A DNA stretch of 64,000 nucleotides, taken from positions 436,744 through 500,743 of the forward strand of contig OZ220701.1 of assembly GCA_965116745.1 (NCBI GenBank). The letters are read 5' to 3'. Below, piece after piece: positions 20,177 to 58,893 of this stretch. The notes under the pieces were generated by a model, which ran no database searches, was not told the DNA's origin, and was given only the letters and a program-made list of their open reading frames with translations. Made by a program: the position numbers and the translations under genes. This DNA comes from Alphaproteobacteria bacterium (GTDB lineage Bacteria; Pseudomonadota; Alphaproteobacteria; TMED109). The stretch's first letter is position 1; every line of letters starts with the position of its first letter.

Positions 20177-20365
20177 ATGGGTCGCAACGCGCGGCTCGAA
20201 GAAGTATCCGAGGCCGGCAACATGGACCTACCCGGCTTCCGGTTGCATCGCCTCAAGGGCGATCTCGGAAGTTTCTGGTCGGTCACCGTGTCCGGCAACT
20301 GGCGCGTGATCTTCCGGTTCGAGGGTGGTCACGCCAGCGATGTCGATCTGGTCGATTATCACTAG
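20177..20365 (+). CDS. higB: HigB-type (RelE/ParE superfamily) toxin, apparently N-terminally truncated
   Basis: The C-terminal two-thirds matches plasmid-maintenance killer proteins (NMDLPGFRLHRLKGDLGSFWSVTVSGNWRVIFRFEGGHASDVDLVDYH). It is 62 aa versus ~92 aa typical, and upstream in-frame codons do not look HigB-like. Confidence 0.7.
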   Translation: MGRNARLEEVSEAGNMDLPGFRLHRLKGDLGSFWSVTVSGNWRVIFRFEGGHASDVDLVDYH

Positions 20366-20377
20366 GGAGAACAAGCG

Positions 20378-36750: not shown

Positions 36751-36821
36751 ACGCTTCGCGGTCGGACAAGATGCGGCTTGTGGCGACGCTCCCCGGAGTT
36801 TGACCATCAGGATGGATCAGG

Positions 36822-37271: not shown

Positions 37272-37504
37272 ACGGCGCCGTCCCGGTCACGGTCGGCCCG
37301 GATGGTGTCGGTGCTGTCGACCGACGAACGCAGGCGCTGCCGCAGGGCTTTCGCCCGCTCGACAAAGTGCTCCTCGGTGCCGAACAATGCCTCCCGCAAT
37401 ATGGCTCGGTGTTCGGCCTCGGCCGAACGGCCATTGGCGGCAGCCTTCCGTTTGAGCGCTTGCGCGACTTCCTCGCTGATGTTCCGTACGGTCAGTTGAA
37501 CCAT
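37268..37504 (-). CDS. ribbon-helix-helix (FitA/Arc-like) antitoxin
   Basis: MVQLTVRNISEEVAQALKRKAAANGRSAEAEHRAILREAL is the typical RHH plasmid-stability antitoxin N-terminus. Confidence 0.75.
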   Translation of the reverse strand: MVQLTVRNISEEVAQALKRKAAANGRSAEAEHRAILREALFGTEEHFVERAKALRQRLRSSVDSTDTIRADRDRDGAV

Positions 37505-37857
37505 TCGCGTTGCCTTCAATAGAGTGCCTGCAATGCTGTCACTAGTTTATCCTGAAATCGCGCCGGTGACATGGCCGAAGGGTTGCAGCCTGCTCCGGCT
37601 TCGCGCTGTCAGCGGATTCGATAGTGCCCGTCCGCCGCCGTCGACGCGGCTCTTGCCGCCCCTGCGGAGTTTTCGAGGCTCGAAGGCGGCAGGCGGGCGA
37701 TCGCTGGCGCGAAGGCCCGCGGTGCGAAGTGCACGGCACCAGACCGGAACGGGGTGCGGCCAATCTCTTCCAGGTGACTGAATTCGGTACTCTGACGGCC
37801 GGCCCGGGGTCAAGATGGGCCGGCCAGCGCCGATCGTCTTAGGCCGGAGGAGTGAAC

Positions 37858-41990: not shown

Positions 41991-42243
41991 AGCCAACAAT
42001 TTGTGGGTCTTACTGCCTGAGGCGCCCCCGCGCCCACCATGCGCTACGCTCCCACGCTAGGAGAGTCGGCGACTGCGGGTTCCCCCGTAACGGCAACAGT
42101 ATCTCTCCGGCGGTCGGGCCGCGGTCCCCGTCGTTTTGAATGGAATCAATCCGAATGAGAACAGCAAGGTGAATACCCGAGCAAGCGGCGCGATACGGCC
42201 CCGCAAGATGCTGCAGCTCCCGACATCAAAGGATCCGAAGTCC

Positions 42244-43590
42244 ATGTGGCGACAGCTGGCAAAGTCCCTGCGGGCTGCCGCCGTTGTCGGATTCTCGCTC
42301 GGTGCCCTGCCGACGCCTGCGGCTGCCGATCTGGGGGCCGAAGCGTTCACCCTGGCGAACGGCATGCGGGTGGTGGCCGTCCCTATGGAACGGCCTGGCG
42401 TGGTGCACCATGTCGTGTACTACGCGTTGGGCGCCGCGGACGACCCGAGCGGTCAGTCAGGAATCGCGCACTTCATCGAACATCTGATGTTCAATGGAAC
42501 GGGGACAACCACTGACGGACAGTACAAGCAGATCATCGGGCGCAATGGCGGCAGCACGAATGCCTACACGTCAGCGGATGTAACCGCGTATTACGCGACG
42601 ATTGCCCGTGACCGCCTGGAGACGGTCATGCGTCTCGAGGCCGACCGCATGACAGGGGTTGTCTTCAAACCCGAAAACTTCGAGGCCGAACGGCAGGTCA
42701 TCATCGAGGAGCGCCTGCAGCGAACCGAGAATTCTCCGTCCGGAGTGTTTCGCGAGCAGCTCATGGCTGCGGCCTGGCAGGCGCACCCGTACGGGCGTCC
42801 GCTCATCGGCTGGCGCCACGAGATCGAAGCGCTCACCCTGGAGCAGGTGGAAACGTACTATCGCCGCCACTACGGACCTGCCAACGCGCTCCTGGTCGTC
42901 GCGGGTGACATCGACGCCGAGTCGTTGCGTCCACTGGCGGAACGCACGTTCGGCACGGTTGCGGCAGGCGGGGAGCCGGTGCCGCCGCGGCCCATGGAAC
43001 CTCCCCATCGAGCCCGGATCACCGTCGAGATGGAAGACCCGCGTGTCGCCCAGCCCCGATGGTCCAGGCATTATCGGGCCGAGAGCTATTTCTCGGGCGT
43101 CGCGCGGGAGTCGGCCACTCTCGACGTGCTCGCGGCCGTGTTGGGGGGAGCGTCCGGCCGGTTGCACCGTGCCCTCGTTGTGGATCGCAAGGTCGCCTTG
43201 GCGACAGGCGCCTACTTCGCCGGCAGCAACCGGGATGGAGGGTTCTTCCTTGTGTACGCGATGCCTGCTGACGGGACCGACGTTTCCGAAGTCGGGGAAG
43301 CGGTGAATGCAGAGCTTCGGCGGGTGGCCGAGGAGGGCGTCGAGGAAAGGGAGGTGCAGCGCGCAGCCTACCGATTCGCCGCCGGTGAGATTTACGCTCG
43401 TGACGACGTGTCAACGGTTGCCGAGTTCGTCGGGAGCACCCTCATCAAGGGTGGAACCCTGGAGGACATCGATGGGTACATCGACATGGTGCGTTCAATT
43501 TCGGCCGCCGAGGTGGCCGGCGCGGCGCGTGCGCTGCTGGCCGAGCAGGCGACGGTGACCGGAATTCTCCGCCCGGGAGACGCCCAGTGA
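42244..43590 (+). CDS. M16-family (pitrilysin-type) zinc peptidase, active subunit
   Basis: Signal peptide, then the inverted zinc motif GIAHFIEHLMFNGT (HxxEH) and the downstream ERQVIIEE glutamate region. Confidence 0.85.
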   Translation: MWRQLAKSLRAAAVVGFSLGALPTPAAADLGAEAFTLANGMRVVAVPMERPGVVHHVVYYALGAADDPSGQSGIAHFIEHLMFNGTGTTTDGQYKQIIGRNGGSTNAYTSADVTAYYATIARDRLETVMRLEADRMTGVVFKPENFEAERQVIIEERLQRTENSPSGVFREQLMAAAWQAHPYGRPLIGWRHEIEALTLEQVETYYRRHYGPANALLVVAGDIDAESLRPLAERTFGTVAAGGEPVPPRPMEPPHRARITVEMEDPRVAQPRWSRHYRAESYFSGVARESATLDVLAAVLGGASGRLHRALVVDRKVALATGAYFAGSNRDGGFFLVYAMPADGTDVSEVGEAVNAELRRVAEEGVEEREVQRAAYRFAAGEIYARDDVSTVAEFVGSTLIKGGTLEDIDGYIDMVRSISAAEVAGAARALLAEQATVTGILRPGDAQ

Positions 43591-44912
43591 GTCACTTCCT
43601 GCGAAACGTGGCCGCGACGGCGCTGGCGATCAGCATCGCTCTCACCGTCTCCAGCGCGTCAGCCACTACTTCGCCGGTAGAGGTGATCGAGTCGCCGAAG
43701 GGCATCGAAGCGTGGCTGCGCCGAGACTCGTCGCTCCCCATCGTGTCCATGACGTTCCGGTTCACGGGCGGTGCGGCGCTCGACGCCCCCGGGAAGGAGG
43801 GCCTCGCCCAATTCATGGCGGCGCTGCTGGATGAGGGAGCGGGTCCCTATGACACGGTCGCGTTTCGGGATCGCCTGGACGACCGGGCCATTCGGCTGTC
43901 CTTCTCTGCCGGGAGGGACAGCCTGTTCGGTACCCTGCACACGCTCCGGGAAAACGTCGAGGAAGCCGCCATGCTGCTCGGGCACGCGCTGGCCCGCCCG
44001 CGCTTCGACGACGAGCCAGTCGCGCGCATCCGCAGCCAACTGGAAGCGGTTCGGGCGCAGAATGAGACGCGGCCGGGGAGCGTGGGGCGTACTCGCTGGT
44101 TTTCGCTGGTCTTCGGCGATGGGCCGTACGGGCGTCCCTCTTCCGGTACGCAGGCAAGCCTTGCCGGCATCGGTGTCGAGGATTTGCGCGCCGCTGCCAG
44201 CGAACGCCTGGTTCGCCGGCGGTTGGTCGTCGGGGTGGCGGGCGACATTGACCGCGAAGCACTTGCCCGCGTGCTTGATCTCGCATTCGGCGACCTTCCG
44301 GTCGGCGAGCTCCCGGACGAGGCGCCCGAGAACGGGAACTTCGCCGGTCAGACCGTGCACGTCCCCATGGACATTCCGCAAACCGAACTCGTGTTCGGCC
44401 TGCCGGGCATAGCGCGCGACGATGCGGATTTCTTTCCGGCCTTCGTCCTGAACTCCGTCCTGGGCGGTGCAACGCCGGGGACCCGGCTCGAGCAGGAAGT
44501 CCGGATAAAGCGCGGCCTCGCCTACAGCATCTACACCTACCTGGCCGACGCTGAGCGCGCCCCGCTTCTGATCGGCGCGACGTCGACGCGCGACGAAGGG
44601 GCCGGGGAAACGGTCGCGGTGGTGCGCAATGTGGTTCGGCAAACGGCGGCGGGCGGACTCACCGCGGACGAACTTGCCGATGCCAAGCTCTACATCACCG
44701 GTTCATTTCCGCTTGCCCTCGACAGCACGTCCGAGATTGCCGGCTTTCTCGTAGCCATGCAGACCAACGATCTGGGTATCGACTACCTTGACCGTCGCAA
44801 CGCGCTCGTTGAGGCCGTCACGATCGAGGATGTGCAACGCGTGGCCAAGCGTCTGCTGGTGGAGGACGCCATGGTCTGGGTCGCGGTGGGGCGGAGCGAC
44901 CCGTTCCCGTAG
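43587..44912 (+). CDS. M16-family peptidase, non-catalytic partner subunit
   Basis: Same fold pattern but no HxxEH (GLAQFMAALLDEG). There is a 4-nt overlap with the upstream M16 gene. Confidence 0.85.
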   Translation: MSHFLRNVAATALAISIALTVSSASATTSPVEVIESPKGIEAWLRRDSSLPIVSMTFRFTGGAALDAPGKEGLAQFMAALLDEGAGPYDTVAFRDRLDDRAIRLSFSAGRDSLFGTLHTLRENVEEAAMLLGHALARPRFDDEPVARIRSQLEAVRAQNETRPGSVGRTRWFSLVFGDGPYGRPSSGTQASLAGIGVEDLRAAASERLVRRRLVVGVAGDIDREALARVLDLAFGDLPVGELPDEAPENGNFAGQTVHVPMDIPQTELVFGLPGIARDDADFFPAFVLNSVLGGATPGTRLEQEVRIKRGLAYSIYTYLADAERAPLLIGATSTRDEGAGETVAVVRNVVRQTAAGGLTADELADAKLYITGSFPLALDSTSEIAGFLVAMQTNDLGIDYLDRRNALVEAVTIEDVQRVAKRLLVEDAMVWVAVGRSDPFP

Positions 44913-45217: not shown

Positions 45218-47284
45218 TCAGGCGGCCAGTTCGTGCCGCCGCTCGACGACGCGGAAATTCAGCTTCTCGGTGGGTTTCATCGACGGGAGCGGGTTGAACC
45301 GCAGCGCGTCGACGTACTTCGACGGCGACACCTCAAGGGTGACGTGACGAGCGATCATCAGCACGTTGACCGCAAGTTGCAGGTCCATCCACCGCGAACC
45401 CAGGCATTTGTGCGTGCCGAGTCCGTAGGGCGCGTAGCCCGGGTCGCGATGCTCGTCGCGTGGCGGCAGATAGCGGTCGATATCGAACGAGAACGGGTCG
45501 GGGAAGACTTCGTCCAGGTAATGCGTGGCGGTCTGGGCGATATGGACCCGCGAGCCCACCGGGATTTCGTGGCCCCCGATCACGAATGGGTTCATCACGT
45601 CCCGCATCGACATCGGCACGATCGGGTACATCCTGAGGCATTCCATCAGGAAGCGGTGCGTGACCCCCATCGAGGACATGCTGAAGTCGTCCCCGTCGGG
45701 ATCGCCGTGTTCGAACAGGGCATCGGCTTCCTCCCGGATTCTCTCGTGCAGCGCGGGCCGCGACGCCAGCACGTAAACCGCGAAGCTCAGCGCGTCGCCG
45801 AGATAGACGCTCGCGACCAACGACGCCGCCAGGGCGAAACGCAGGTTCGATTCCGGCACGAGCTGCGGATCGCTGGCGTGCAAGCTCAGCCAGTCATCTG
45901 CAAGGTCGCGCGAGCACCCGGCACGCTGGGCCGGCGTATGGACGCTCCGGATGCGTTCGATCAACGTGTCCACGGCCTTCGCCCGGCGCTTCATTCCCGG
46001 GGTATTGAGCATGAACTTGGGCAAGGCATGCATGATGTGAACGATGAGCGCCCGTTCCTTGAACTCGATCAGATCGTCAAGGATGTCCTGGGAGTCCACG
46101 CTGAGGAAGAGCGACGAGAGCTGCGCGTTGACCATTCGCCGGCACCTGCGTACGGGAAAAGTCTCGCCCACCGTCCAGTTCGCCATGAATTCGCGGGCGA
46201 GCCGGTACACCTGGTCCAGTTGACTCGACAGCCGGGCCCGTGAAAACGCCGGTCCCATGGCCTTGCGCAGCCGGAAATGATCGCCGCCGTCCAGCGAAGG
46301 CAATACGCCATGCGCGCCGTAGACTTTCTCGAAATCCGCGAAATAGCCCCAAGCCGTCAGGTGCATTCGCCCGTGCCGGTCCACCCACTCGTTGGTCTCC
46401 CGCCCGCCCAGGACGATCATGGGTTTGACGAACGGTGCACGGATCTCGAACACCGGGCCGTACTCTTTCGTCAGTTCGCCGAAGAGCGCGGGGACGTTGC
46501 CGCTGCGGACGTGGGGGCTGAGCAGCAACCGGCGTAGGGCGACGACGGGTCTTTTCTTGGTGAGCGTGGACCGCCGCAGCATCAGGCTGACGATGTTGTG
46601 TTCGACCGCGGCGGCGATCGAGCGGCCGATCAGGTCCATCCGGCAGATGAAATCAATGCGCTCCTGGGTCTCTTCGTCGATCTGGAACATGAAGCGAAGG
46701 ACGTCGCACGTGTTGACCAGGCAGATGATGATGATTTCCCGGGGTTCGGGAATCGCATCGGTGAAGAGCGCCTTGACGACCCGCGTCTTGATGAACTGCC
46801 CAACCGTGCCCGTTTGGGAGACGCCGAACAGGTCCTCGCGCCAGCGGGTCTCCGCCAGCGTCCAGAATTCGCCGTCGTGGTGTTCCAGGATCTCCGCTTC
46901 GACCAGGCGGTCCAGGGTCTGATCGATCATCGTGTCCGCGTTCAGGGCGAACTTCTCGATCCAGTACTGGGCGTTCCGGCGCTCCGGTTCCTCGGCGATT
47001 TCCTGCAGGATGGGATCGAGGACCGAATCGCCGGTTTCCGTTCGGTCCAGCAGGAACAGCGAGTCCAGGTCGGTGTCGATCCGCGAGAGCAGCGAGAGTT
47101 CCGCCAGCGCCGCGCCCACTACCGCACAATTGAGGGCCCAGCCGGGAACCTGGTGGAAATAGCCGGTCTGCTCGTTGAGGAGCATCAAGACGAGCTCCTC
47201 CGGCAGGGTCAGTGTTCGGATCGTCACGCCGCTATCGGGCATTGGCCCCGGCCCCACTTCCTCCTCTCGCTGTATCGACGCCAA
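45218..47284 (-). CDS. GOLPH3/GPP34-domain - cytochrome P450 fusion protein
   Basis: The N-terminal ~210 aa parallels human GOLPH3. LTLPEELVLMLLNEQTGY matches LTLMEEVLLLGLKDREGY; TGDSVLDPILQEIAEEPERRNAQYWIEKFA matches [30 protein letters not shown]. The C-terminal ~450 aa is a P450, with ExxR in ECLRMYP and heme loop YAPYGLGTHKCLGSRW. Confidence 0.85.
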   Translation of the reverse strand: MASIQREEEVGPGPMPDSGVTIRTLTLPEELVLMLLNEQTGYFHQVPGWALNCAVVGAALAELSLLSRIDTDLDSLFLLDRTETGDSVLDPILQEIAEEPERRNAQYWIEKFALNADTMIDQTLDRLVEAEILEHHDGEFWTLAETRWREDLFGVSQTGTVGQFIKTRVVKALFTDAIPEPREIIIICLVNTCDVLRFMFQIDEETQERIDFICRMDLIGRSIAAAVEHNIVSLMLRRSTLTKKRPVVALRRLLLSPHVRSGNVPALFGELTKEYGPVFEIRAPFVKPMIVLGGRETNEWVDRHGRMHLTAWGYFADFEKVYGAHGVLPSLDGGDHFRLRKAMGPAFSRARLSSQLDQVYRLAREFMANWTVGETFPVRRCRRMVNAQLSSLFLSVDSQDILDDLIEFKERALIVHIMHALPKFMLNTPGMKRRAKAVDTLIERIRSVHTPAQRAGCSRDLADDWLSLHASDPQLVPESNLRFALAASLVASVYLGDALSFAVYVLASRPALHERIREEADALFEHGDPDGDDFSMSSMGVTHRFLMECLRMYPIVPMSMRDVMNPFVIGGHEIPVGSRVHIAQTATHYLDEVFPDPFSFDIDRYLPPRDEHRDPGYAPYGLGTHKCLGSRWMDLQLAVNVLMIARHVTLEVSPSKYVDALRFNPLPSMKPTEKLNFRVVERRHELAA

Positions 47285-47421
47285 GGTTACCCCGATTTCC
47301 GCGCCTCGTCACGCCATTTCGCGTTCAGCTGGTTCGTCCACTTCCGTCGCAACTGCGCCGTTCCTAGTATGGCTATGCCCGTACCGACGACTGCGCGGCC
47401 CTCGCCGACCTTCATCAACAA

Positions 47422-48459
47422 GTGGAGCGCGCCATGTCGATGAAGCTGCCCAGAGACCTTCGGGACGCCTACCGGGGCTGGGACCCGGCGGCCGGCGTGG
47501 CGCGATTCAGCGGCTGGCTCGACCGAAGCAGACGGGCCGACCGGGATGGCTACGACCATACCGCGACAGTGAACGACTACTACGATTTGTGCAGCGAATT
47601 CATGCAGTTCGGATGGAACGAATCCCTGCACTTCGCTCCGTTGACGCGCGGGGAGACGCTGGAGGAAGCCATTGTCCGGCATCAACGCAGGATGATCGGA
47701 TCGCTGGAGCTGCGAGAGGGGATGAAGGTCGTGGACGTCGGCTGCGGTGTAGGCGGCCCCATGCGGCGGGTCGCCCGCGAGTCAAACGCCACGGTCGTCG
47801 GCATCAACAACAACCAACGGCAGTTGGAAATGGCGAGGCGGAGGAACGTCGAGGCGGGCCTCGATCACAGGGCGGAGTATGTCAAGTGCAACTTCATGGA
47901 CATGCACGCCATTGCAGCCCACTCGTTTGACGCGGGTTACGCGATCGAGTCGACGTGTCACGCGCCGGACAAGGCGCGCGCGTTCGCGGAGATCTTTCGC
48001 GTGCTCAAGCCGGGCGCGCCGTTCTGGGGCCAGGAAATGTGCATGACGGAAAGCTTCGACCCGGACAACGCCCGTCACCGCGCGATCAAGGATGAACTCA
48101 TGCGGGGAGTCGCCCTCCCGAATATCGCCACGTTCCGGGAAGTGAACGACGCGCTCGAGGCCGCAGGCTTCCACATTGTCGAGGCGGAGGACAGGGACAT
48201 CGGGGATAGCGGGGGCACGCCCTGGTATCGGCCCATGGAAGGACAGGGCGGGATATTGCGCAATGCGTTTCGCAGGACGCCATGGGGCCGCGCGGCGATG
48301 ATTGCCGGCCTTCGGCTGGCTGAGGCGTGCCGTGCCTTCCCGAAGGGTTCGACCGCCGTCGTCAGATTGATGGATCGAACAGCCGACGCGTTTGTTGCCG
48401 GCGGCAGGACAGGGATATTCACGCCGCTCTACTGTTTCCTCGCCCGCAAGCCCGGGTGA
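47422..48459 (+). CDS. sterol 24-C-methyltransferase (ERG6/SMT-type class I SAM methyltransferase)
   Basis: It is collinear with yeast ERG6 along its whole length: VNDYYDLCSEFMQFGWNESLHFAP, VVDVGCGVGGPMRRVA, VGINNNQRQL, YAIESTCHAPDKARAFAEIFRVLKPGAPF, PWYRPMEG, and the sterol-MT C-terminal block AFVAGGRTGIFTPLYCFLARKPG. Confidence 0.85.
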   Translation: MERAMSMKLPRDLRDAYRGWDPAAGVARFSGWLDRSRRADRDGYDHTATVNDYYDLCSEFMQFGWNESLHFAPLTRGETLEEAIVRHQRRMIGSLELREGMKVVDVGCGVGGPMRRVARESNATVVGINNNQRQLEMARRRNVEAGLDHRAEYVKCNFMDMHAIAAHSFDAGYAIESTCHAPDKARAFAEIFRVLKPGAPFWGQEMCMTESFDPDNARHRAIKDELMRGVALPNIATFREVNDALEAAGFHIVEAEDRDIGDSGGTPWYRPMEGQGGILRNAFRRTPWGRAAMIAGLRLAEACRAFPKGSTAVVRLMDRTADAFVAGGRTGIFTPLYCFLARKPG

Positions 48460-48828: not shown

Positions 48829-49785
48829 CTATCGCACCCGCTGGAGCGCCGTCCGGGTGAAGTCGCGAGCGTCAAGGTCGGTTCCAAACGCGTAGTCCGA
48901 CCAGTCCAGTATGGTGCTCTTGCCCGTGAGATGGTTGGTCATCGTGATCCTGCTGCTCCGCCAGAAACGATCCAGATATTGTGCGTAGTCTTCCATGACC
49001 ATCGTCTTGACATGCGCTTCCCGACGGTCGAAGAACTGGATCTGCATGGAGCGCAGTTCTTCCTTGTCCATCCATACCAGTTGACGGGAGTACCCGGAAT
49101 CCTCATTCAGCGGGATCCGCTCCAGAACGATGCATTCGAGCTCGCCGCAAGGCTCGTCCCGCAGGTACCGATGCATGAATTTCTCGACTTCCACGGTGCC
49201 GAGGTCCTCGTACGAGAACTCGCTGCCCATGAATGAGCCGGATTGATTCGCGGAGCTGATGCGCTTGACCCGTTTCAGGGCGGGGAGATAGAGCCACTGT
49301 TCGTCTGGCTCACCCTTGTGGACGTGAACGAGAAATGCGGTTCCCTTGACGTCGCGCGGGCGGTCGAACACGAACACGCTGCGGTCGCCGTCGCCCGCGA
49401 CCTCCATCACCTTCAGGCGGATTTCGCGATTGCTCTCCTGTCCCCGCTTGGTGCGCAGGGTCATGATCAGGTTAGACGTGAAGTTGCCGAAACCCTTTTG
49501 ACGTTCACGGGCCTCGGTCGCGATCCGGAGCCCCGCTTCTTCGGCGGTTTCAGCCTGCCCGACCGTAGGCACGGCCGCCCAGGCGAAGATGGCAAGTAGG
49601 ATCCCGAATGACGCCAGGACCGGGCGAGGAAGAGAAACGCGAATGACCGTTGCCTCCTGTCGATCACCGTAACCGCAACAGGAAACGTAGGAACTCGACG
49701 GAGAGGCCCGAGCAGTGAGCGGATCACATCGATTCCCGCACCTGTTGAAGCATGGTAGCACGATTCCTGCCATGCACCTGACCAT
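48829..49785 (-). CDS. LolA-like outer-membrane lipoprotein-sorting-type periplasmic protein
   Basis: DGDRSVFVFDRPRDVKGTAFLVHVHKGEPDEQWLYLPALKRVKRISSANQSGSFMGSEFSYEDL is the hallmark block of the LolA_like family that usually pairs with COG1033 RND genes. The start is uncertain; the signal-like segment begins near 49650. Confidence 0.75.
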   Translation of the reverse strand: MVRCMAGIVLPCFNRCGNRCDPLTARASPSSSYVSCCGYGDRQEATVIRVSLPRPVLASFGILLAIFAWAAVPTVGQAETAEEAGLRIATEARERQKGFGNFTSNLIMTLRTKRGQESNREIRLKVMEVAGDGDRSVFVFDRPRDVKGTAFLVHVHKGEPDEQWLYLPALKRVKRISSANQSGSFMGSEFSYEDLGTVEVEKFMHRYLRDEPCGELECIVLERIPLNEDSGYSRQLVWMDKEELRSMQIQFFDRREAHVKTMVMEDYAQYLDRFWRSSRITMTNHLTGKSTILDWSDYAFGTDLDARDFTRTALQRVR

Positions 49786-49827: not shown

Positions 49828-52155
49828 CTATCCGACCGACCGGCTCAGTCGCTCCCTGATCTGCGCGGTCGTTTCCTTCGTCGTGTCAAGCGCCATCAGC
49901 AACGGCGGAAGGAACAGGAAATCCGCCAGCAGGGCGATGATGACCGTGATCCCGACGAGCAGGCCGAGCGCCTGGTTGGTCACCATTCCCGATGCTCCGA
50001 ACACCATGAAGCCCAGCGCGAACACAACCGTCGTCGCGGTCAGCGCCTTGCCGACCGCGCCAAAGGCGGACTGAACGGACTCCGACGGCAACAGCCCGCG
50101 TTTCCTGGCGCCGACATACTTGGTCATGAAGTGGATCGTGTCGTCCACGATGATGCCGAACGCGATGGCGGTGACGACTGACGCCGCGACGCCGACCTCT
50201 CCTACCACGTATCCCCAAAGACCCATCGCCATGGCGGCCGGCAGGAAATTGGGGACTAGGCTGATCAGGCCGAGGCGCACGCTTCTGAAGACGAAGAGCA
50301 GGAGCAGGGACACGATGGCCATTGCCGCGATCGTGCCCCGCAGCATGCCCTCGATGTTCCGTTGAATTGAATGGGCGCCGACCACGGAAACGCCCGTGGC
50401 CTGGGTTTGCAGGTCGGGCGCGTTTTCCCGGAACCAGGCTTGCGTGCGATCGTCGAGGTCAACCTTCTCCCGGGTCGTGAGGCTCTTGAGCACGACCGTC
50501 ACGCGCGTCGAAGACCGTTCCACGTCGATGAGGTTGTTCAGATCGCGGCCGACCGGCAGAGAGAACTCGTAGAGCAGCAGGTACTGCGCAGCAAGGTCGG
50601 AGTCGTCCGGAAGCAGGTAGAAGCCGGGATCGTCGCCATGCAGGTTCTTGTTCAGGCGCTTCATGATGTCGGAGATGGCGAAGACGTGGGCCACCTCCGG
50701 TTGCGCCCGACTCCACTCCGCAAACGCGTCCACCTGCCGGAGATATTCGACATCCGTGATGCCGCCCTCCCGCCCGGAGTTGAGCGAGTACTCGTATGTT
50801 TCTACGCCGGTGAAGTTCTCGCTCACAAAGTCCGTGGATCGCCGGAACTCGTAGCTCTCGTCGAGCAGCTCAAGCCAGTTCTCGTGCAGCTCGATCCGCG
50901 AGATCCCGGCGATGAGCACGACCATCACGGCGGCGACCGACCAAAGCAGGGTCGTGCGGTAGGAAATGACGAACCGCGCCAGGCGATCGAAGATGTCTGC
51001 TTTTCCCGCCGGCGCAGGCCCGCCACGCATCGGCACAACGGTCAGGAAAGCGGGCAGCAGCGTGACCGAAAAGACGAAGGCCGCCATAGCGCCGAACGCC
51101 ACCATGTTGCCCATCACCCGAAACGGCGGCATGTCCGCGAAATTGAGGCTGAGAAAGCCGATTGCGGTTGTCACCGATGTCAGGAGAACCGGCCACACGT
51201 TGACCTGCAGGGAATGAATCGCTGCCTGCGGACGGTCCATGCCTTGGCGCAGGCCCGCCCGCATCCCCTCGATAATGTGCACGGAGTGCGCGACGGTGAC
51301 TGCCATCAAGACGAATAGCGCCGCGCCGCTCTCGCCGAACAACTTCAGCCCGACCCAACCGGTGAAACCCAGCGCGGACAGCATGACCGCGATCAGCATC
51401 ACGAGGATCGCCACCATTCCCCATAGCGAGCGCAACAGAACGATGGCGACGAGCAGCATGGTCCCGAGCGCGGCCGGCGCGAGGACGCCCATGTCATCGT
51501 CAATCGCCTGCTTCATGGCGCGGTTGAGGATGAGTTCGCCGGTCAGATGGTAGTCGATGGTCGGATACCGAGCTCTCTGTTCGGCGGCGGTACCGTGGAG
51601 GAAGTCGGTAACCTCGAATCGTCCCAGCTGTCGGTCCTCGGGAAGCGCGACGCTGACGACCAATCCGGCGATGCGACCATCCCTGGAAATGAAGCGCCCT
51701 GCGACTTCTTCGGTACTGAGCGCAATTTCGCGAATGCGTTCGATATCGCTGTCGCTCAGGGAACTGGCGTCGTCGATCAGGGGGGCGACGATCAGTTCGT
51801 CCTCGAGGCCCTCGCTGTGTGAATAGTTTGTGATCGAATCAACGCGGGTGACGTAGGGCGTTCGCCATAGCTGGTCGGTCAGCTCTTCAATGGCGACGAG
51901 CGCTTCCGGCGAGAAAACCGTACCGCCTTGCGGGGCCACGACCACCAGCGCGGCGTCGGAGAGCGAGTAGGTGGCTTCCAGCTCGTCGAGTGCGACGATG
52001 TGCGGGTCGTCTTGGCTGAAATGATTCCGAACGTCGACGTCAACGACAATGATGTACTGGGCGCCCGCGGCCAGGGCTAGCATTGCAACTAGTGAGAGTG
52101 CGATAGACAGCCATCGGCGCTCAACCGGTAGCGCGATGAAGGAATCCAAATTCAT
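49828..52155 (-). CDS. RND-superfamily lipid exporter (COG1033, MMPL/HpnN-like)
   Basis: 775 aa with two 6-TM bundles and two periplasmic loops. The N-terminal region ...HFSQDDPHIVALDELEATYS... is typical of predicted RND exporters. A LolA-like gene follows immediately on the same strand. Confidence 0.9.
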   Translation of the reverse strand: MNLDSFIALPVERRWLSIALSLVAMLALAAGAQYIIVVDVDVRNHFSQDDPHIVALDELEATYSLSDAALVVVAPQGGTVFSPEALVAIEELTDQLWRTPYVTRVDSITNYSHSEGLEDELIVAPLIDDASSLSDSDIERIREIALSTEEVAGRFISRDGRIAGLVVSVALPEDRQLGRFEVTDFLHGTAAEQRARYPTIDYHLTGELILNRAMKQAIDDDMGVLAPAALGTMLLVAIVLLRSLWGMVAILVMLIAVMLSALGFTGWVGLKLFGESGAALFVLMAVTVAHSVHIIEGMRAGLRQGMDRPQAAIHSLQVNVWPVLLTSVTTAIGFLSLNFADMPPFRVMGNMVAFGAMAAFVFSVTLLPAFLTVVPMRGGPAPAGKADIFDRLARFVISYRTTLLWSVAAVMVVLIAGISRIELHENWLELLDESYEFRRSTDFVSENFTGVETYEYSLNSGREGGITDVEYLRQVDAFAEWSRAQPEVAHVFAISDIMKRLNKNLHGDDPGFYLLPDDSDLAAQYLLLYEFSLPVGRDLNNLIDVERSSTRVTVVLKSLTTREKVDLDDRTQAWFRENAPDLQTQATGVSVVGAHSIQRNIEGMLRGTIAAMAIVSLLLLFVFRSVRLGLISLVPNFLPAAMAMGLWGYVVGEVGVAASVVTAIAFGIIVDDTIHFMTKYVGARKRGLLPSESVQSAFGAVGKALTATTVVFALGFMVFGASGMVTNQALGLLVGITVIIALLADFLFLPPLLMALDTTKETTAQIRERLSRSVG

Positions 52156-52794
52156 GTCAACGTGCCGAATCGGTATCAGGCTTCATGTATAGCACTTCCA
52201 GTCCACCCGGCCACGGGAGGAGCCGGTACGCCTGCCCATCCAGGCTGCTGTTCGTATCGCGGTTGCGGCAACCACCACCGGTATCGTCAAGTTAACAGTA
52301 TCGCGTTTGCCCCATTGCCTTCAATCAATACTGAAACGGTTGATAGGTACGGATGGTTGCCGGTGCGCCAGTGCCCGCTGCATCGCGCTGACGCAACCGT
52401 GTCCGGCAGAGAACGCTCCACGCGATCACGCCTGGCGCGCGCGGTTCAACTGCGGCAACTTCACGTCGAGACTTCGGAAAGTCCCCTCATCAGGCAGAGG
52501 GGCAGGCTATTGAATGTCGTCGACTTCAGATGGCTTGCAGGTCTCTTTTGTACGGTCATTCGTCTTGTTGCCGTACCACGACAGTGCTATTTGTCGGGTG
52601 ATGCGATACAGCAAGAACTGTGACGTCGGCTCGGCTACTGGCCTGCCGTCGACGTGCGACTTCCTCACCATCATTTGACATGGCGAGGACGAAACCTGGA
52701 TGCTTCAGGACCACGCACCGTCGCTCCCTTCGGTCTTGCGCAGTTCGCTGAGATAAAGGCGTCGCCATACCTGGGAACGAGAAATTGGCGAAAC

Positions 52795-53841
52795 GTGAAG
52801 AGCAGTTGCAGCACGGGTGACGTGACGGGCGCTCTGTTTCCGTTTCCCGAGGGCTGGTACTTCGTCATCAGCCGACGCTCTTTGGTAAAGAGCAAACTGA
52901 TTCAACGGCAGTGGCTGGGCCAGGACATCATCGCCTGGTGTGACAGTGAAGGCACTGTCTGCGTGGCCGAGTCGGTGTGCCCGCATATGGGTTCATCTCT
53001 GGGCCCGGCCGCAGGCGGGCAAGTGCGCGACGACTGTCTCGTCTGCCCCTTTCACGGGTTCACGTACGATATTTCCGGCAGTTGCGTGGCGACTCCCTTT
53101 GCTCCGCCGCCGAAATCCGTGAAGCTTCAGGTGCTCGATGTACGGGAAATTCATGGCCTGATCTTCGCCTGGTGGAGCGCAGCCGGACGACCGCCGCAAT
53201 GGACCTTGCCGGACGTGCCGTCCGCGGGAGACGACTGGTGCGCCCCGGAAGTCCGGAGCGTCCGATTTCGCGGCCATGTCCAGGAGTTGGCAGAGAACTC
53301 CGTGGATCTGGCCCACCTGCAGTACGTACATGGTTACCGAGACGTAAATCCGGTCGGCTCGACCACGGTGGATGGCGCCCATCTGCTTGCCCGGTTCGAG
53401 TTCCGCCGGCGCCGGCGTATCGCCGGCATTGTCGAGTCCGTCTACCAGGTTTCTGCTGCCGCCCACGTCCATGGGCTCGGTTACTCTTTCGTCGATATCC
53501 AGGAGCACTCGATCGGCATGGACCTGCGGCTCTGGGTCCTTGCCACCCCGGTCGACGGCACGTTGGTGGAGTTGGTCCTGGTCAGCCAGATCCGGAACAT
53601 GCGCAACCCCAAACGACCGATCGTGGGCCTGGGGTTCCTGCCCGCGAAGCTGCGCACCAGCGTCATGAACAAGTTCGTGGTATCCGCGCAAATGCGGGAT
53701 GTCCGCCAGGATGTCGTCATCTGGCAACGACGGCGGCATCGTCCGCATCCGCGATTGAGTCGTTCTGACGGCGACATCGGCAGATATCGTCGCTATTGCA
53801 AACAGTTCTATCCGCGCGTCGACGAAGGTGATGACAGGTAG
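52795..53841 (+). CDS. Rieske [2Fe-2S] non-heme iron oxygenase (sterol-desaturase/SdmA/KshA-like class)
   Basis: Rieske motif CPHMGSSL...(17)...CPFHGF, preceded by FPEGWYFV. The C-terminal catalytic region includes NSVDLAHLQYVHG. Start GTG 52795 is proposed; the 395-aa ORF start at 52654 adds a non-homologous leader. Confidence 0.8.
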   Translation: MKSSCSTGDVTGALFPFPEGWYFVISRRSLVKSKLIQRQWLGQDIIAWCDSEGTVCVAESVCPHMGSSLGPAAGGQVRDDCLVCPFHGFTYDISGSCVATPFAPPPKSVKLQVLDVREIHGLIFAWWSAAGRPPQWTLPDVPSAGDDWCAPEVRSVRFRGHVQELAENSVDLAHLQYVHGYRDVNPVGSTTVDGAHLLARFEFRRRRRIAGIVESVYQVSAAAHVHGLGYSFVDIQEHSIGMDLRLWVLATPVDGTLVELVLVSQIRNMRNPKRPIVGLGFLPAKLRTSVMNKFVVSAQMRDVRQDVVIWQRRRHRPHPRLSRSDGDIGRYRRYCKQFYPRVDEGDDR

Positions 53842-53975: not shown

Positions 53976-55334
53976 CTACGCCTTCCTGAACCGTGACCCG
54001 TGCAGGATGCTCCCATAGTGGTTGAACCACCGCCTGGCCTCGGGGTCGTCAAAGGGATAGTCGGCGCCAAGCTGCCTCGCCGCGGCGAGGCCGGTGATGA
54101 GGCATGTCTCCTGGCTGTTGATCAGCGTGTGAGCGCCGCAGTGCCACGTCCTTCGCTTGCCCTGAATGAAGCGGAACAGGCCCACGAGCATCGTGACTTG
54201 ACGCAGGTCATGAACGATATGCTGGAACCGGCGCTTCGAGATGATTTTCAGCTCGTCGATGGGACTGGTCGCGTTGTAGGTCACCAGGCAGGGCTTGTCC
54301 GAACGCTTGGCCCAGGGCTGCTGGTTGTGGATGATGTGCGTGATCTCGTAATTGTCAGGTTTGTCGCCGTACTGCCGGATGTAGTTGGTCCGAGTGGCCA
54401 GGCACTTCATGTCGTTGTCGGGCAGGACAGAGGAGTCCCAGTGAACGACGGCTTGACGGTGGATATCGTTGTCGTATCGGATTGACGAAAGGATGAAGCG
54501 TTCGAGCCGGGAAGGCTGGTCCAGGATTTTCAGGGTCTGGTCTGCCGGGCATGCAAACACAACCTCGTCGAACGTTTCCCGGGCCCCGGACGCATCCTCA
54601 ATCACGACGCCGGATGCCTGTCGGTACACCTTCGAGACCGGCCGGTTGAGGTAGATTTTGTCCCGGAAGCCAGCCGACAGGTTCTCGTAGATTCGTCGAG
54701 TCCCCTGATCCCACGTCCACATGGGGGTGCCCGTCTCGATATTGAAGAATTCGAGATACCTCGAGAAGAGCGCCGCTGGCAGATCGAACACGTTCGAGGC
54801 CAGTACGAAATTGATGAACATCGGCTTCAGGATCTTGTACCGGAAGGCCTCGGAAAATCCCCCCAGATTCAAGACCGTCCGCATGCTGACGTAATTGAAC
54901 GGGTTGAGGGCGTTCAGGTACTTGGACCGGGCGCGGCTGAGCCAGCCGATCCAGTGCAAACGTCTCAGGAGGCGCTGAAACTTCCTGATTTCGGATTGAA
55001 GATCGTCCCTGATCTCGGACTCGAAATCATGGGCGTAGGCTTGGCCACCGTACTCGACGCTGTAGGTGAACCTGGTATCAATGAGCTTGATATCGAACGC
55101 TTCCATCAGCAACAGGACGTGGTGATACACTGATGGAATAAGGGCCGTGACCGATATGTCGAAGGGAATTGAACTGCCGTCATTCTGGGGCATGTCGACG
55201 GTGACCGCGTTCCCGCCGAGCTGCTCCTGGGCCTCGAACAGGCGGAAATCAAAACGGTCCGGGTGATGATGCAGCGCCCAGGCGGCGCCCAGTCCCGAGA
55301 CGCCTCCACCCACAACAGCAATTCGTTGCGGCAT
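53976..55334 (-). CDS. FAD-dependent oxidoreductase (amine-oxidase fold, COG2907-like)
   Basis: Dinucleotide fold MPQRIAVVGGGVSGLGAAWAL...FEAQEQLGGNA and the C-terminal ...HCGAHTLINSQETCLITGLAAARQLG. GC is visibly lower than in the flanks. Confidence 0.8.
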   Translation of the reverse strand: MPQRIAVVGGGVSGLGAAWALHHHPDRFDFRLFEAQEQLGGNAVTVDMPQNDGSSIPFDISVTALIPSVYHHVLLLMEAFDIKLIDTRFTYSVEYGGQAYAHDFESEIRDDLQSEIRKFQRLLRRLHWIGWLSRARSKYLNALNPFNYVSMRTVLNLGGFSEAFRYKILKPMFINFVLASNVFDLPAALFSRYLEFFNIETGTPMWTWDQGTRRIYENLSAGFRDKIYLNRPVSKVYRQASGVVIEDASGARETFDEVVFACPADQTLKILDQPSRLERFILSSIRYDNDIHRQAVVHWDSSVLPDNDMKCLATRTNYIRQYGDKPDNYEITHIIHNQQPWAKRSDKPCLVTYNATSPIDELKIISKRRFQHIVHDLRQVTMLVGLFRFIQGKRRTWHCGAHTLINSQETCLITGLAAARQLGADYPFDDPEARRWFNHYGSILHGSRFRKA

Positions 55335-55757
55335 TGCGGTTTTCCTCGCAAATCTCGGAACTTGGAAACTTACCACCGTGCCCGATCGCCCACTAGGCAG
55401 CCATGCTGCTTGGCCGCGCCATGGCAGGAAGAAACGAACCGCCGGTCAGGCAGCGACAGCGATGTCGGACCCGAGGCCGCCGTCTGGCCAAATCACTGCC
55501 GTGCCGCGGCGTGCCCTTCGTAGTGCGTTTGCGATTAACGTGCGTCGAGTGCCTGATCTCGGGGGACGTCTGATCGATGGGATCGAGATCTGGTGAAGGC
55601 GGTGCAGCACCCGCGGTTGTGTCCCTGCATTGCGGGCGGCGTGGCGCCCGGTTCTGTTCATGGCGGTAGCTCCCGTGGCCAGCCAAACGGGGGGTCCAAT
55701 CAGAATGTTGTTCGCGGCCTGCCGAAGCGTCATCATCCTTTCCGAGTGAGAACCGGC

Positions 55758-57134: not shown

Positions 57135-58130
57135 ATGCGGGTGATCACGGGAGCGAGCGGCCATATCGGCGGTGTGCTCGCCCGAGTGCTGGCCGACCGG
57201 GGTGATCCCCGTCAGGTCCGCGCGATCTACCGCGATCGGAAAGGAACGGCAGCCGATCTCGCCATTGAGTGGGTCGGTGGCGACATCCTCGACCAGGAAT
57301 CGCTGGTTGCCGCGTTCTCGGGAGCGGAAACCGTCTACCACCTGGCCGCCTTGGTGTCGATTGACCCCGGCCGGGCCAAGGATGTCCACACGACGAACGT
57401 GTCGGGCACGCGCAACGTCGTTGAGGCAGCCCTGCGCTGCGGCGTGCGGCGGCTGGTGCACGTTTCCTCGATTCACGCCTTCAACCAGCACCCGCTCGAC
57501 GAAGTGCTCGACGAGCGCCGTGGTCCCGCCGACGGTCCGTGGCACGCCGCCTACGACCTGTCGAAAGCGGCAGGCGAACGGGAGATTCGGCGCGGCATTG
57601 ATCGCGGCCTCGATGCCGTGATCCTCAACCCGACCAGCGTCATCGGCCCCTTCGACGGCGTGCCCTCGTACATGGGACACGTGTTCCTCGACCTGTACCG
57701 GAGACGCATTCCCGCGCAGGTTGCGGGCGGCTTCGACTGGGTGGACGTGCGCGACGTGGTCGACGCCACGGTGGCCGCCGAGACGAAGGCGAGGTGCGGC
57801 GAGAACTACCTCCTGTCAGGCGGCTGGGATACCGTGCGCAACCTGGCGATCCTGTCCGAGCAGGCGACCGGGGTGCCGGTGTCGCGTTTCGTGGTCCCCT
57901 TGTTCGTGGCCCGGCTCTGGGCGCCCTTTCAGGTCATGTTGGACCGTAGTCAGGGGCGCCGGCCGCTCTATACGCCGTCGGCGGTACGCGTGATGAGCAA
58001 CGGCAACCGCCGGATATCCAACGCCAAGGCGCGGGCGGAACTCGGGTTCGAGCCGCGTCCCTTGGCAGATTCCGTACGGGATGCCTACCGTTGGTTCGAC
58101 GAGCAGGGCATGCTCGGCGAAGCTGGTTGA
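57135..58130 (+). CDS. extended short-chain dehydrogenase/reductase (3-beta-HSD/HpnA/dihydroflavonol reductase-like)
   Basis: MRVITGASGHIGGVLARVL (Rossmann fold), YDLSKAAGE (YxxxK), 331 aa. Confidence 0.85.
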   Translation: MRVITGASGHIGGVLARVLADRGDPRQVRAIYRDRKGTAADLAIEWVGGDILDQESLVAAFSGAETVYHLAALVSIDPGRAKDVHTTNVSGTRNVVEAALRCGVRRLVHVSSIHAFNQHPLDEVLDERRGPADGPWHAAYDLSKAAGEREIRRGIDRGLDAVILNPTSVIGPFDGVPSYMGHVFLDLYRRRIPAQVAGGFDWVDVRDVVDATVAAETKARCGENYLLSGGWDTVRNLAILSEQATGVPVSRFVVPLFVARLWAPFQVMLDRSQGRRPLYTPSAVRVMSNGNRRISNAKARAELGFEPRPLADSVRDAYRWFDEQGMLGEAG

Positions 58131-58131
58131 G

Positions 58132-58893
58132 ATGGCCGAGGAACAACTGCACGGCGTGCTGGTATGGGCGGTCATCGCCGCGGCCGGCCTGACGTTCCTG
58201 TACCTGCTCCGCCTGACCGCGCCCTACGGCCGCCACTACGCCGGCACGGGCTGGGGGCCCCACATCTCCAGCCGGCTCGGCTGGGTCATCATGGAACTGC
58301 CGGCGGTCGTCATCTTTCTCGCGGTCTATCTCGCCGGAAAGTCGGCGTCCCATCTCGTGCCGCTGTTCTTCCTGGCCATGTGGCAGGTCCACTATCTGAA
58401 CCGGACGTTCGTGTTTCCGTTCCGGATCCGGGCAAGCGGACGGAAGACGCCGCTGCTGATCGTGGCGTCAGGCTTGTTCTTCAATGCGATCAACGCCTAC
58501 ATCAATGCCCGGTTCATTTCGGAATTCGGCGAGTACGCGGTCGAATGGCTCGCCGACCCGCGTTTCCTGATCGGCGTCGGAGTTTTCCTGGCGGGGATGG
58601 CGCTCAACCTGCACGCCGACCACGTCCTCATTCGCCTGCGTGGACCGGGCGAGACCGGCTACGTGATCCCGCAGGGAGGCGGGTATCGCTTCGTGTCGTG
58701 TCCCAACTACCTGGGTGAACTCCTCGAATGGGCCGGCTGGGCACTCGCCACGTGGTCGACGTGCGGTCTCGCCTTTTTCCTCTTTACCGCCGCCAATCTC
58801 GTGCCCAGGGCGCGCAGCAATCACCAATGGTACCGGGAGACCTTCAGCGATTACCCGCCTCGCCGGAAGGCGCTGATACCGGGCGTCTTCTGA
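58132..58893 (+). CDS. 3-oxo-5-alpha-steroid 4-dehydrogenase (steroid 5-alpha-reductase, SRD5A/DET2 family)
   Basis: The C-terminus GGGYRFVSCPNYLGELLEWAGWALATWSTCGLAFFLFTAANLVPRARSNHQWYRETFSDYPPRRKALIPGVF is collinear with human SRD5A1 (GGLFEYVTAANYFGEIMEWCGYALASWS...RAKEHHEWYLRKFEEYPKFRKIIIPFLF). The start ATG is 2 nt after the SDR stop. Confidence 0.85.
   Translation: MAEEQLHGVLVWAVIAAAGLTFLYLLRLTAPYGRHYAGTGWGPHISSRLGWVIMELPAVVIFLAVYLAGKSASHLVPLFFLAMWQVHYLNRTFVFPFRIRASGRKTPLLIVASGLFFNAINAYINARFISEFGEYAVEWLADPRFLIGVGVFLAGMALNLHADHVLIRLRGPGETGYVIPQGGGYRFVSCPNYLGELLEWAGWALATWSTCGLAFFLFTAANLVPRARSNHQWYRETFSDYPPRRKALIPGVF

Follow-up and report, generated by a model that had tools for sequence, protein, structure and literature searches.

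A GOLPH3-like domain fused to a cytochrome P450 with an atypical I-helix: a candidate bacterial sterol-tailoring enzyme

Why would a bacterium join a domain of the GOLPH3 fold, known from the eukaryotic Golgi, to a cytochrome P450, and on which substrate would such an enzyme act? The question is raised by a gene on the minus strand of a 64,000-nucleotide stretch of an alphaproteobacterial contig (OZ220701.1, assembly GCA_965116745.1; the whole stretch is referred to here as the window), which encodes an N-terminal GOLPH3-like (GPP34) domain and a C-terminal P450 in one polypeptide. Proteins composed of GPP34 and a cytochrome P450 have been described as GPP34_L, comprising 656 of the 663 long GPP34 proteins; they are monophyletic, occur only in sponge symbionts, where they are found in most symbiont phyla, and are expressed in situ, while GPP34-Rieske fusions are rare and P450 genes often adjoin stand-alone GPP34 genes (Microbiome 2025;13:4, PMC11706023). 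The architecture pointed out in the initial annotation of the locus had thus already been published. The published proposal is that of a secreted effector which binds host phosphatidylinositol-4-phosphate (PI4P) and blocks phagosome maturation (PMC11706023). The word "sterol" does not occur in that paper, and our search for literature linking GPP34 to sterols returned nothing relevant. As far as the searchable literature shows, the link to a sterol-type gene module, the evidence against PI4P binding, and the recognition of a subclade with an invariant Tyr-Leu I-helix are new.

The explanation that we favor, with slightly better than even confidence, is a sterol-tailoring P450, distinct from the 14-demethylase, whose repurposed GOLPH3-like domain docks it at the membrane or onto partner proteins. 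That the P450 is sterol-related in some way we consider likely. What we observed directly is the architecture and how it is conserved, the exchanged I-helix residues, the missing pocket residues, the distribution of charge, and the neighboring genes; we infer the sterol substrate, the reaction type, and the docking role.

The fusion protein and its P450 domain

The open reading frame (ORF) listing gave one frame of 688 codons on the minus strand (45218..47284) starting with TTG, and the initial annotation read it as a single ORF. Although this frame exists as read, the gene most likely begins 14 codons further on, at the ATG at 47242, and encodes 674 amino acids (aa), because the homologs comprise 672-676 aa and GAGAGGAGGAAG precedes this ATG. 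Residue numbers count from this ATG, and adding 14 gives the numbering of the 688-codon ORF. The features of the gene are as follows.

45218..47242, minus strand: GPP34-P450 fusion gene with its stop codon, 674 aa when read from the ATG; the mechanical ORF reaches the TTG at 47284
46601..47206, minus strand: GPP34/GOLPH3-like domain (residues 13-214, counted from the ATG), with a net charge of -22 over residues 1-218
46493..46588, minus strand: conserved polybasic linker SLMLRRSTLTKKRPVVALRRLLLSPHVRSGNV, net charge +8
45323..46510, minus strand: cytochrome P450 domain, closest solved relative Methylococcus capsulatus CYP51 with 22-24% identity
45794..45814, minus strand: I-helix motif A-S-V-Y-L-G-D replacing (A/G)Gx(D/E)T(T/S), with Tyr480 invariant in the clade
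45632..45643, minus strand: ExxR motif ECLR, with E534 and R537 invariant
45398..45427, minus strand: heme-binding loop YGLGTHKCLG, with Cys613 invariant

Both domains lie above the Pfam thresholds in the same polypeptide, with GPP34 at the N-terminus and P450 at the C-terminus, as in GPP34_L. The GPP34 (PF05719) match extends over ORF residues 27-228 and covers profile positions 1-199 of 201 (E 6.1e-30; 105.2 bits against a gathering cut-off of 29.1), which is a full-length family match, and p450 matches ORF residues 259-654 (E 5.5e-31). P450 matches in NCBIfam were found far below threshold only.

The architecture is conserved. GPP34, P450, and equal length recur in all 120 listed clusters at 90% identity (at least 120 clusters), with 70-93% identity, and when each GTDB species was scanned with one genome, 76 fusion loci came to light, several of them on closed chromosomes of long-read metagenome-assembled genomes (MAGs). 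The carriers belong to the Alpha- and Gammaproteobacteria, Dehalococcoidia and other Chloroflexota, Latescibacterota, Gemmatimonadota (Longimicrobiales), Dadabacteria/Thermodesulfobacteriota, Poribacteria, and Acidimicrobiia, i.e., to at least eight bacterial phyla, and 6 JGI/GenBank metagenome loci carry the fusion as well. One metagenome locus, MKWU01, is from an Aplysina aerophoba metagenome. An exhaustive search returned about 45 separate fused clusters at 50% identity clustering, with P450-domain identity down to 28%, and unfused P450 relatives of about 450 aa with identity of at most 36%, the nearest of which are CYP120-like. The closest relative of the window protein (93% identity) is encoded by the Rhodospirillales MAG SB0662_bin_7, and the nearest relatives altogether come from MAGs of the SB06xx, RHO, COS, CAR, and jk18x series, of which SB06xx and jk18x are sponge-derived bins (PMC11706023, PMC9531527).

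The P450 hallmarks pointed out in the initial annotation, ECLR and YGLGTHKCLG, were both located, and a PERF-type arginine motif, FDIDRY, is also present. Across 47 diverse fusions, Cys613, E534/R537, D587/R590, and G607 are invariant; judged by these motifs, the heme-binding machinery beyond the I-helix is canonical. A Foldseek search with the C-terminal domain returned M. capsulatus CYP51 first (TM-score 0.80-0.82, 22-24% identity). Since Foldseek hardly separates P450s from one another, the CYP51 affinity is better judged by the profile search, in which the family profile matched Methylococcus CYP51 with E 2.7e-34, five to six orders of magnitude ahead of the next match. By sequence, the domain is classified as a distant CYP51-like enzyme outside the CYP51 family.

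A departure from other P450s lies in the I-helix. The segment LVASVYLGDALSFAVY is located inside a long predicted helix (residues 464-494) in the AlphaFold2 (AF2) model, and its A-S-V-Y-L-G-D pairs gap-free with A-G-H-H-T-S-S of Methylococcus CYP51, whether the single sequence or the family profile is aligned, so that Tyr takes the acid/His position and Leu that of the Thr. Among 77 clade members, Tyr480 is conserved in 100%, Leu481 in 92%, Gly482 in 97%, and Asp483 in 81%. The initial annotation, which had seen no acid-alcohol pair in this region, was therefore right about a feature that the clade conserves as Tyr-Leu in place of acid-Thr. A misplaced I-helix, an error that the annotation itself had considered, was ruled out by the two independent CYP51 alignments and the predicted helix, which agree with its placement. 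Most other GPP34-P450 families retain an AG(L/I)DT I-helix, and the sister representatives P0129 and P0130 show AGH-YT(G/A)S, with Thr, intermediate between the CYP51 pattern and Tyr-Leu. The Tyr-Leu I-helix is a trait of one subclade only, and the GPP34 domain and the odd I-helix are best treated as separate features because most other fused families keep AG(L/I)DT.

In the initial annotation, the missing pair was taken as a hint of isomerase- or peroxygenase-like activity. An isomerase, a peroxygenase, or a hydroperoxide-rearranging (CYP74/CYP8-like) enzyme acting on sterols without activating O2 could be suggested by the exchange of Thr for Leu and of the acid for an invariant Tyr, by the lack of a redox partner encoded nearby, and by the sterol peroxides that sponges contain, but EryF-type substrate-assisted P450s are O2-dependent without the Thr, most bacterial P450 genes have no adjacent redox partner, the sister subclade represented by P0129 and P0130 keeps the Thr, and the remaining P450 machinery is canonical. 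Such activity is not implied by the missing pair itself, because the O2-dependent CYP710/CYP61 sterol C-22 desaturases, with the I-helix FLFA(A/S)QDA(S/T)(S/T)S, likewise lack the Thr and have Ala at this position (PMC11311414). Taken together, we regard chemistry of this kind as unlikely. In an O2-dependent enzyme, proton delivery would be rerouted through the invariant Tyr, water, or a substrate hydroxyl, given that Tyr-Leu stands where other P450s have acid-Thr (His-Thr in CYP51), and the pattern is compatible with desaturase-type or substrate-assisted oxidation.

The window protein does not carry the CYP710/CYP61 signature. It reads LVASVYLGDALS in this region and shares with these enzymes only the A-S start and the absence of Thr, and a C-22-desaturase-like reaction specifically seems rather unlikely to us. 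The pattern G-x2-H-x3-R-x6-F(S/T) was dropped as a CYP710 signature, as this C-helix pattern is common among bacterial P450s.

The sterol-type gene module

The substrate is suggested by the genes that accompany the fusion. In the window, the neighborhood of the fusion gene on the sterol methyltransferase side comprises the following features.

47243..47421, no strand: 179-bp intergenic region that separates the divergently transcribed fusion and sterol methyltransferase genes
47422..48459, plus strand: sterol 24-C-methyltransferase-type gene (SMT), Methyltransf_11 and Sterol_MT_C
48829..49785, minus strand: LolA-like periplasmic lipid-carrier protein, conserved module member
49828..52155, minus strand: MMPL/HAE3/HpnN-like resistance-nodulation-division (RND) transporter with a weak sterol-sensing-domain match, conserved module member
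52654..53841, plus strand: Rieske and KshA_C oxygenase, closest to the 3-ketosteroid 9alpha-hydroxylase KshA, conserved module member
53976..55376, minus strand: flavin adenine dinucleotide (FAD) amine-oxidase-family enzyme, LkcE-like and fatty-acid-isomerase-like, conserved module member
57135..58130, plus strand: SdmB/HpnA-like NAD(P)-dependent 3beta-hydroxysteroid dehydrogenase (3beta-HSD)-family reductase, near the module, no conserved neighbor
58081..58893, plus strand: steroid 5alpha-reductase-family membrane reductase (PF02544), neighbor only in the window and in locus L063

The Rieske oxygenase matches KshA with E 4e-27 and SdmA weakly (40 bits), the flavoenzyme matches LkcE with E 9e-31 and shows similarity also to the Propionibacterium acnes fatty-acid isomerase, and the RND transporter scores far below the HpnN equivalog cut-off.

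This association extends well beyond the window. Using tblastn with the window proteins against the 76 GTDB loci, 69 of which have a full-length fusion match, we found an SMT in 42 of the 76; among the 69 full-length loci, 41 have an SMT no further than 10 kb from the fusion, and in 38 of these the distance is at most 2 kb, in 15 at most 500 bp. The SMT-bearing loci belong to the Alpha- and Gammaproteobacteria, Dehalococcoidia, other Chloroflexota, and Dadabacteria. The flavoenzyme was found in 31, the Rieske oxygenase in 29, the LolA-like protein in 28, and the RND pump in 26 of the 76 loci, and the order and orientation of the module genes vary between loci. In locus L082, an ERG4/ERG24-family gene (Pfam E 4e-32) separates the fusion from the SMT, and tblastn detected a homolog in the flanks of 14 further Dadabacteria-type GTDB loci. 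Most telling is L055, an Arenicellales MAG, in which the fusion is clustered with genes for an RND pump, an SMT, CYP51, ERG24, and a squalene epoxidase fused to an oxidosqualene cyclase (OSC). The CYP51 of this cluster matches Methylococcus CYP51 with E 8e-54 over 254 residues and has an AGQHT I-helix. Because L055 holds both the fusion and a genuine CYP51, the fusion P450 belongs to a sterol cluster and is most likely not its 14-demethylase. The divergent SMT neighbor and the sterol-type module across phyla give strong contextual support to the sterol substrate guessed at in the initial annotation.

GC content is 0.60-0.63 over 46-56 kb of the window, from the fusion gene through the flavoenzyme gene, against 0.66-0.69 in the flanks, and the module proteins are 67-81% identical between phyla. 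Both observations are consistent with horizontal spread of the module as an acquired island. Clusters of ERG24, CYP51, and OSC genes with a flanking SMT have been reported from 115 of 537 MAGs of Ircinia symbionts in the same phyla, ten in total (Kelly et al., PMC9531527), and the SMTs of sponge symbionts are functionally active (Brown et al., PMC10070321). GPP34 is mentioned in neither paper, and no metagenome contig name of the fusion loci occurs in the supplements of Brown et al., which we searched for overlap with their SMT-bearing scaffolds. The PDB contains no SMT structure.

Several points weigh against a sterol-tailoring enzyme docked by its GPP34 domain. The sterol substrate is deduced entirely from gene neighborhood, and the neighborhood counts are not independent events, as the module was transferred as a block. 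No sterol-marker gene lies within the flanks of 28 of the 69 full-length loci, and a motif search for OSC, squalene-hopene cyclase (SHC), and squalene epoxidase found an OSC within 10 kb in only 1 of 77 regions (L055), so that the sterol could be either self-made or host-derived. No sterol genes were seen near the distant fused families P0139 and P0129, whose neighbors are unrelated; the sterol link would therefore be confined to the Tyr-Leu clade and would not extend to all GPP34-P450 fusions. A ferredoxin-type Cys motif is found nowhere in the window, and no redox partner is encoded nearby. In addition, a domain with a net charge of -22 should be repelled by the anionic bacterial membrane, which makes direct tethering by the domain doubtful.

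Some of these points would also be expected if the substrate were a hopanoid, carotenoid, fatty acid, or other terpenoid and the SMT adjacency reflected no more than a shared mobile island. Besides the loci without a nearby sterol marker and the distant fused families in unrelated contexts, the HpnN-like character of the RND pump, a nearby reductase that is equally HpnA-like and SdmB-like, and the CYP120-like nearest unfused relatives agree with such a substrate. Nevertheless, the SMT adjacency survives many rearrangements in five or more phyla, the ERG4/ERG24-family neighbor is Pfam-confirmed in L082, the fusion lies within an OSC-CYP51-ERG24 cluster in L055, and the window showed no genes for hopanoids or carotenoids. 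On balance, a non-sterol substrate has a low probability in our view.

If the sterol-tailoring explanation is correct, the fusion protein would be a cytoplasmic heme-thiolate P450 tailoring sterols, and its host module would be exchanged horizontally among sponge-associated bacteria. The module would couple SMT side-chain methylation with oxidations and reductions by the P450, the KshA-like Rieske oxygenase, the flavoenzyme, and, in some lineages, an ERG4/ERG24-type reductase, and the pair of LolA-like protein and HpnN-like RND transporter would move the product across the envelope. As to the reaction, our preferred guess is that the P450 desaturates or oxidizes the sterol side chain together with the SMT, acting like ERG5 beside ERG6-like and ERG4-like partners.

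Further observations concern individual module loci. In L055 (16436-21966), where the core of a sterol cluster looks complete, the squalene epoxidase-OSC protein comprises 1139 aa and CYP51 is divided into ORFs of 317 and 160 aa by an apparent frameshift near 20310-20375, probably a long-read indel and not a pseudogene. Two or three tandem fusion paralogs, about 60% identical to the window protein, occur in L026, L029, L036, L039, L041, L059, and L082, all from Dadabacteria/Thermodesulfobacteriota, where two SMT types and an ERG4/ERG24-family gene are also present; this suggests diversified substrate or regio-specificity. Dadabacteria modules have, between their LolA-like and SMT genes, a gene for a conserved 448-aa protein with no Pfam match (L032:7119-8465 and L082:5810-7156), which in L032 is adjoined by a 137-aa ORF without a match. 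In the window itself, within the module or next to it, the ORFs at 55593-56537 (314 aa), 52162-52623 (153 aa), and 56659-57144 (161 aa) have no Pfam match, and the 314-aa protein has neither an NCBIfam match nor a counterpart in GTDB loci L001-L076.

The GOLPH3-like domain and the remaining alternatives

The relationship of the N-terminal domain to GOLPH3 is supported at several levels. The LTLxEE- and TGD...LD...WIE-type blocks, which the initial annotation had aligned by eye, were both found and aligned to GOLPH3: LTLPEELVLMLL corresponds to GOLPH3 LTLMEEVLLLGL in the N-terminal block, and TGDSVLDPILQEIAEEPERRNAQYWIE to the TGDxxLD...WIE counterpart block. The PF05719 profile recognized the region, as described above, and the fusion-family profile matches human GOLPH3 (3kn1/9qpq) over the whole domain (E 6e-8); this comparison needs the family profile, as a PDB search with the single N-terminal sequence gave marginal matches only (E 0.008-0.27). 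Two AF2 models were built. The first, from 34 close homologs, had a poor P450 domain (predicted local distance difference test, pLDDT, 57) and was used only for the GPP34 fold search, in which GOLPH3 was the top Foldseek match (E 2e-8, TM-score 0.61). The second, from an alignment of 47 diverse fusions, reached a mean pLDDT of 89.4 and a predicted TM-score (pTM) of 0.86, and a defined two-domain arrangement is predicted. The structural comparison proposed in the initial annotation thus leads to GOLPH3 for the N-terminal domain and to M. capsulatus CYP51 for the C-terminal one.

The lipid-binding site is a different matter. In GOLPH3, W81/R90 and R171/R174 are required for PI4P binding (Wood et al., PMC2806290). 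These positions were mapped by profile alignment to full-length GOLPH3 (9qpq_A) and compared in 77 relatives. W81 corresponds to P33 in the window protein, with W35 nearby, and the arginines correspond to the following residues.

GOLPH3 R90: V42 in the window protein, I/V/A in 75 of 77 relatives
GOLPH3 R171: D103 in the window protein, E/D in 76 of 77 relatives
GOLPH3 R174: I106 in the window protein, I/T/V/M/L in 77 relatives

The domain has a net charge of -22 in the window protein, which equals the clade mean; clade members range from -28 to -14, and the mean over all fused families is -14. The replacement of the pocket arginines, together with this charge, leads us to doubt PI4P binding and argues against a PI4P binder of the known GOLPH3 type. 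In GOLPH3, a highly electronegative face holds the short basic tails of membrane enzymes, and a hairpin inserts in the bilayer (bioRxiv 10.1101/2025.06.26.661719). The AF2 model of the fusion predicts strands at 119-122/126-129 and 133-136/142-144, with G124, F126, and W127 conserved and the loop 133-144 of low confidence. It appears that the bacterial domain kept and exaggerated the acidic character and may have kept the hairpin region, and that the lipid-headgroup pocket was lost.

The 32-residue linker that follows the GPP34 domain has a net charge of +8 in the window protein (clade mean +5.7) and occupies the position where microsomal P450s carry their membrane anchor and basic hinge. Residues 1-250 (window 46493-47242) therefore show an extreme charge segregation, conserved in the clade, in which the -22 domain is followed by the +8 linker. 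An intramolecular contact between the linker and the GPP34 domain is conceivable by analogy, because the basic linker resembles the short basic tails bound by GOLPH3. Read from the sequence, no transmembrane segment was seen in the fusion protein, and its N-terminus has neither a signal-peptide-like hydrophobic stretch nor a twin-arginine motif. GOLPH3-like membrane tethering by the GPP34 domain, as envisaged in the initial annotation, is weakened by the charge of the domain and by the lack of conservation of R90, R171, and R174; membrane contact, if there is any, more likely involves the hairpin together with the +8 linker, or docking to basic tails of membrane proteins. In the sterol-tailoring explanation, the GOLPH3-like domain would substitute for the transmembrane anchor of eukaryotic sterol P450s and would hold the P450 at the inner-membrane surface, beside membrane-embedded sterol enzymes or the transporter.

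Instead of serving as a membrane or enzyme adaptor, the acidic domain could recruit an electron-transfer partner or regulate the basic proximal face of the P450. Fusions of GPP34 with P450 as well as with Rieske oxygenases are known (PMC11706023), and both kinds of enzyme need external electrons; the domain is strongly acidic, as ferredoxins are, and the pTM of 0.86 suggests a fixed GPP34-P450 interface. A role in redox docking is nonetheless quite unlikely, considering that the broad family has no cofactor-binding motif or conserved Cys cluster and that ferredoxins are themselves acidic and would not be attracted by an acidic domain.

We find the published effector model still less probable for the window protein. 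It is consistent with the confinement of the family to sponge symbionts and its expression in situ (PMC11706023), as well as with the role of the eukaryotic relatives GOLPH3 and Vps74 as PI4P effectors (PMC2806290). The residues required for PI4P binding are, however, not conserved, the domain is strongly acidic, secretion signals of the two kinds sought were not seen, a heme enzyme in need of ferredoxin-type electrons would be an unlikely secreted effector, and the gene is located among genes for integral-membrane and sterol enzymes.

In sequence and in structure, bacterial CYP51 comes closest to the P450 domain, and the fusion shares with it an H-K-C heme loop and a partly similar B'-region, which could indicate a sterol 14alpha-demethylase with an additional N-terminal domain. 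This is highly improbable in view of the low identity, the replacement of the AG(Q/H)HT(S) signature by ASVYLG, the genuine CYP51 encoded beside the fusion in L055, and the canonical CYP51 already present in the sterol clusters of sponge symbionts (PMC9531527, PMC10070321). Finally, an assembly error or frameshift joining two genes, an artefact that the initial annotation had wished to see checked, is practically excluded by the same fused architecture and length across at least 120 clusters, 76 GTDB loci including closed chromosomes, and 6 metagenome loci, by the linker conserved between the domains, and by the confident two-domain model.

The window has further genes besides the module. Two M16 (pitrilysin-type) peptidase genes with a 4 bp overlap (42136-44912, plus strand) lie directly beyond the 3' end of the fusion gene; these, the reductases, and other flanking genes are not conserved beside the fusion in the 76 GTDB loci. 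Further away, and with no evident tie to the fusion, are genes encoding an autotransporter beta-barrel protein (18041-20092), a TonB-dependent receptor (23495-26137), an AAA_14/DUF4143 ATPase (26691-28031), hydantoinase/oxoprolinase A and B subunits (34567-39597), and an NTP_transf_8 nucleotidyltransferase (40488-41504). An ORF of 802 aa (6976-9384, minus strand) combines an ABC-transporter ATPase (residues 26-170) with a full amidase domain (379-786); this could be an unusual fusion or a read-through of two genes.

Implications and comparison with known systems

The first animals are dated by means of sterane biomarkers, 24-isopropylcholestane among them. There is an active debate on whether the precursor sterols with modified side chains can come from sponge symbionts and not from the sponges themselves (PMC10070321, PMC9531527), and the module offers clonable candidate genes for post-methylation steps and sterol export, with the fusion P450 as its most conserved member. 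One tentative possibility, to which we assign well under an even chance, is that the clade represents the missing tailoring oxidase of sterol synthesis by sponge symbionts, an ERG5-like desaturase or oxidase of the side chain acting with SMT and an ERG4/24-type or flavin reductase, with the GOLPH3-like domain as a PI4P-independent adaptor that keeps a soluble enzyme on its membrane-embedded partners. If so, the fusion clade would contribute to those unusual sterols, alkylated or unsaturated, that have been credited to sponges, the GPP34_L family would be re-read from a host-manipulation effector to a metabolic enzyme with a repurposed GOLPH3 fold, and two separate literatures, on symbiont sterol gene clusters and on GPP34 as a symbiosis marker, would be joined. 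The fusion would then be a prokaryotic counterpart, possibly a forerunner, of Golgi-enzyme retention by GOLPH3, which bears on the role of the GPP34 fold before its use in the eukaryotic Golgi. A large natural family with an invariant Tyr-Leu for acid-Thr also constitutes a test case for alternative O2-activation or desaturation chemistry.

Among known systems, the window protein is closest to GPP34_L, with which it shares the PF05719 and PF00067 architecture and the lineages, and its 93% relative, SB0662_bin_7, comes from the Ircinia ramosa bin series used in PMC11706023; the published account differs from ours in containing no sterol context, residue-level analysis, or I-helix analysis. With GOLPH3 and Vps74 it has in common the fold, the conserved LTLxEE and TGDxxLD...WIE blocks, and perhaps the predicted beta-hairpin region, and its overall acidity resembles the client-binding face of GOLPH3. 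In contrast to these proteins, the window domain lacks R90, R171, and R174 as well as the COPI-binding N-terminal tail, and it is fused to an enzyme, bacterial, and most likely cytoplasmic.

Bacterial CYP51 (M. capsulatus, PDB 6mcw/7jj1/7snm) is the best match to the P450 domain in sequence and structure, and it also occurs in sterol gene clusters. The two differ in overall sequence (22-24% identity) and in the I-helix (ASVYLG in the window protein, AGHHTS in CYP51), and the fusion coexists with a true CYP51 in L055. Methylococcus CYP51 is a fusion protein as well, but to a C-terminal ferredoxin, whereas the fused domain of the window protein is N-terminal and probably has no redox function. 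CYP710/CYP61 (ERG5), a sterol side-chain P450 acting with SMT (ERG6) and an ERG4-type reductase, is a precedent for sterol P450s that lack the canonical Thr, and its I-helix likewise starts with A-(A/S). The window protein has Tyr in place of Asp, its homology to CYP710/CYP61 is seen at the superfamily level only, and the eukaryotic enzymes are anchored by a transmembrane helix. Finally, although the carrier in the window is LolA-like, not BstB/BstC-like, and the transporter scores far below the HpnN equivalog cut-off, the module resembles the BstABC system of Methylococcus and HpnN in that an RND/MMPL transporter and a periplasmic lipid-carrier-like protein are encoded together with sterol enzymes.

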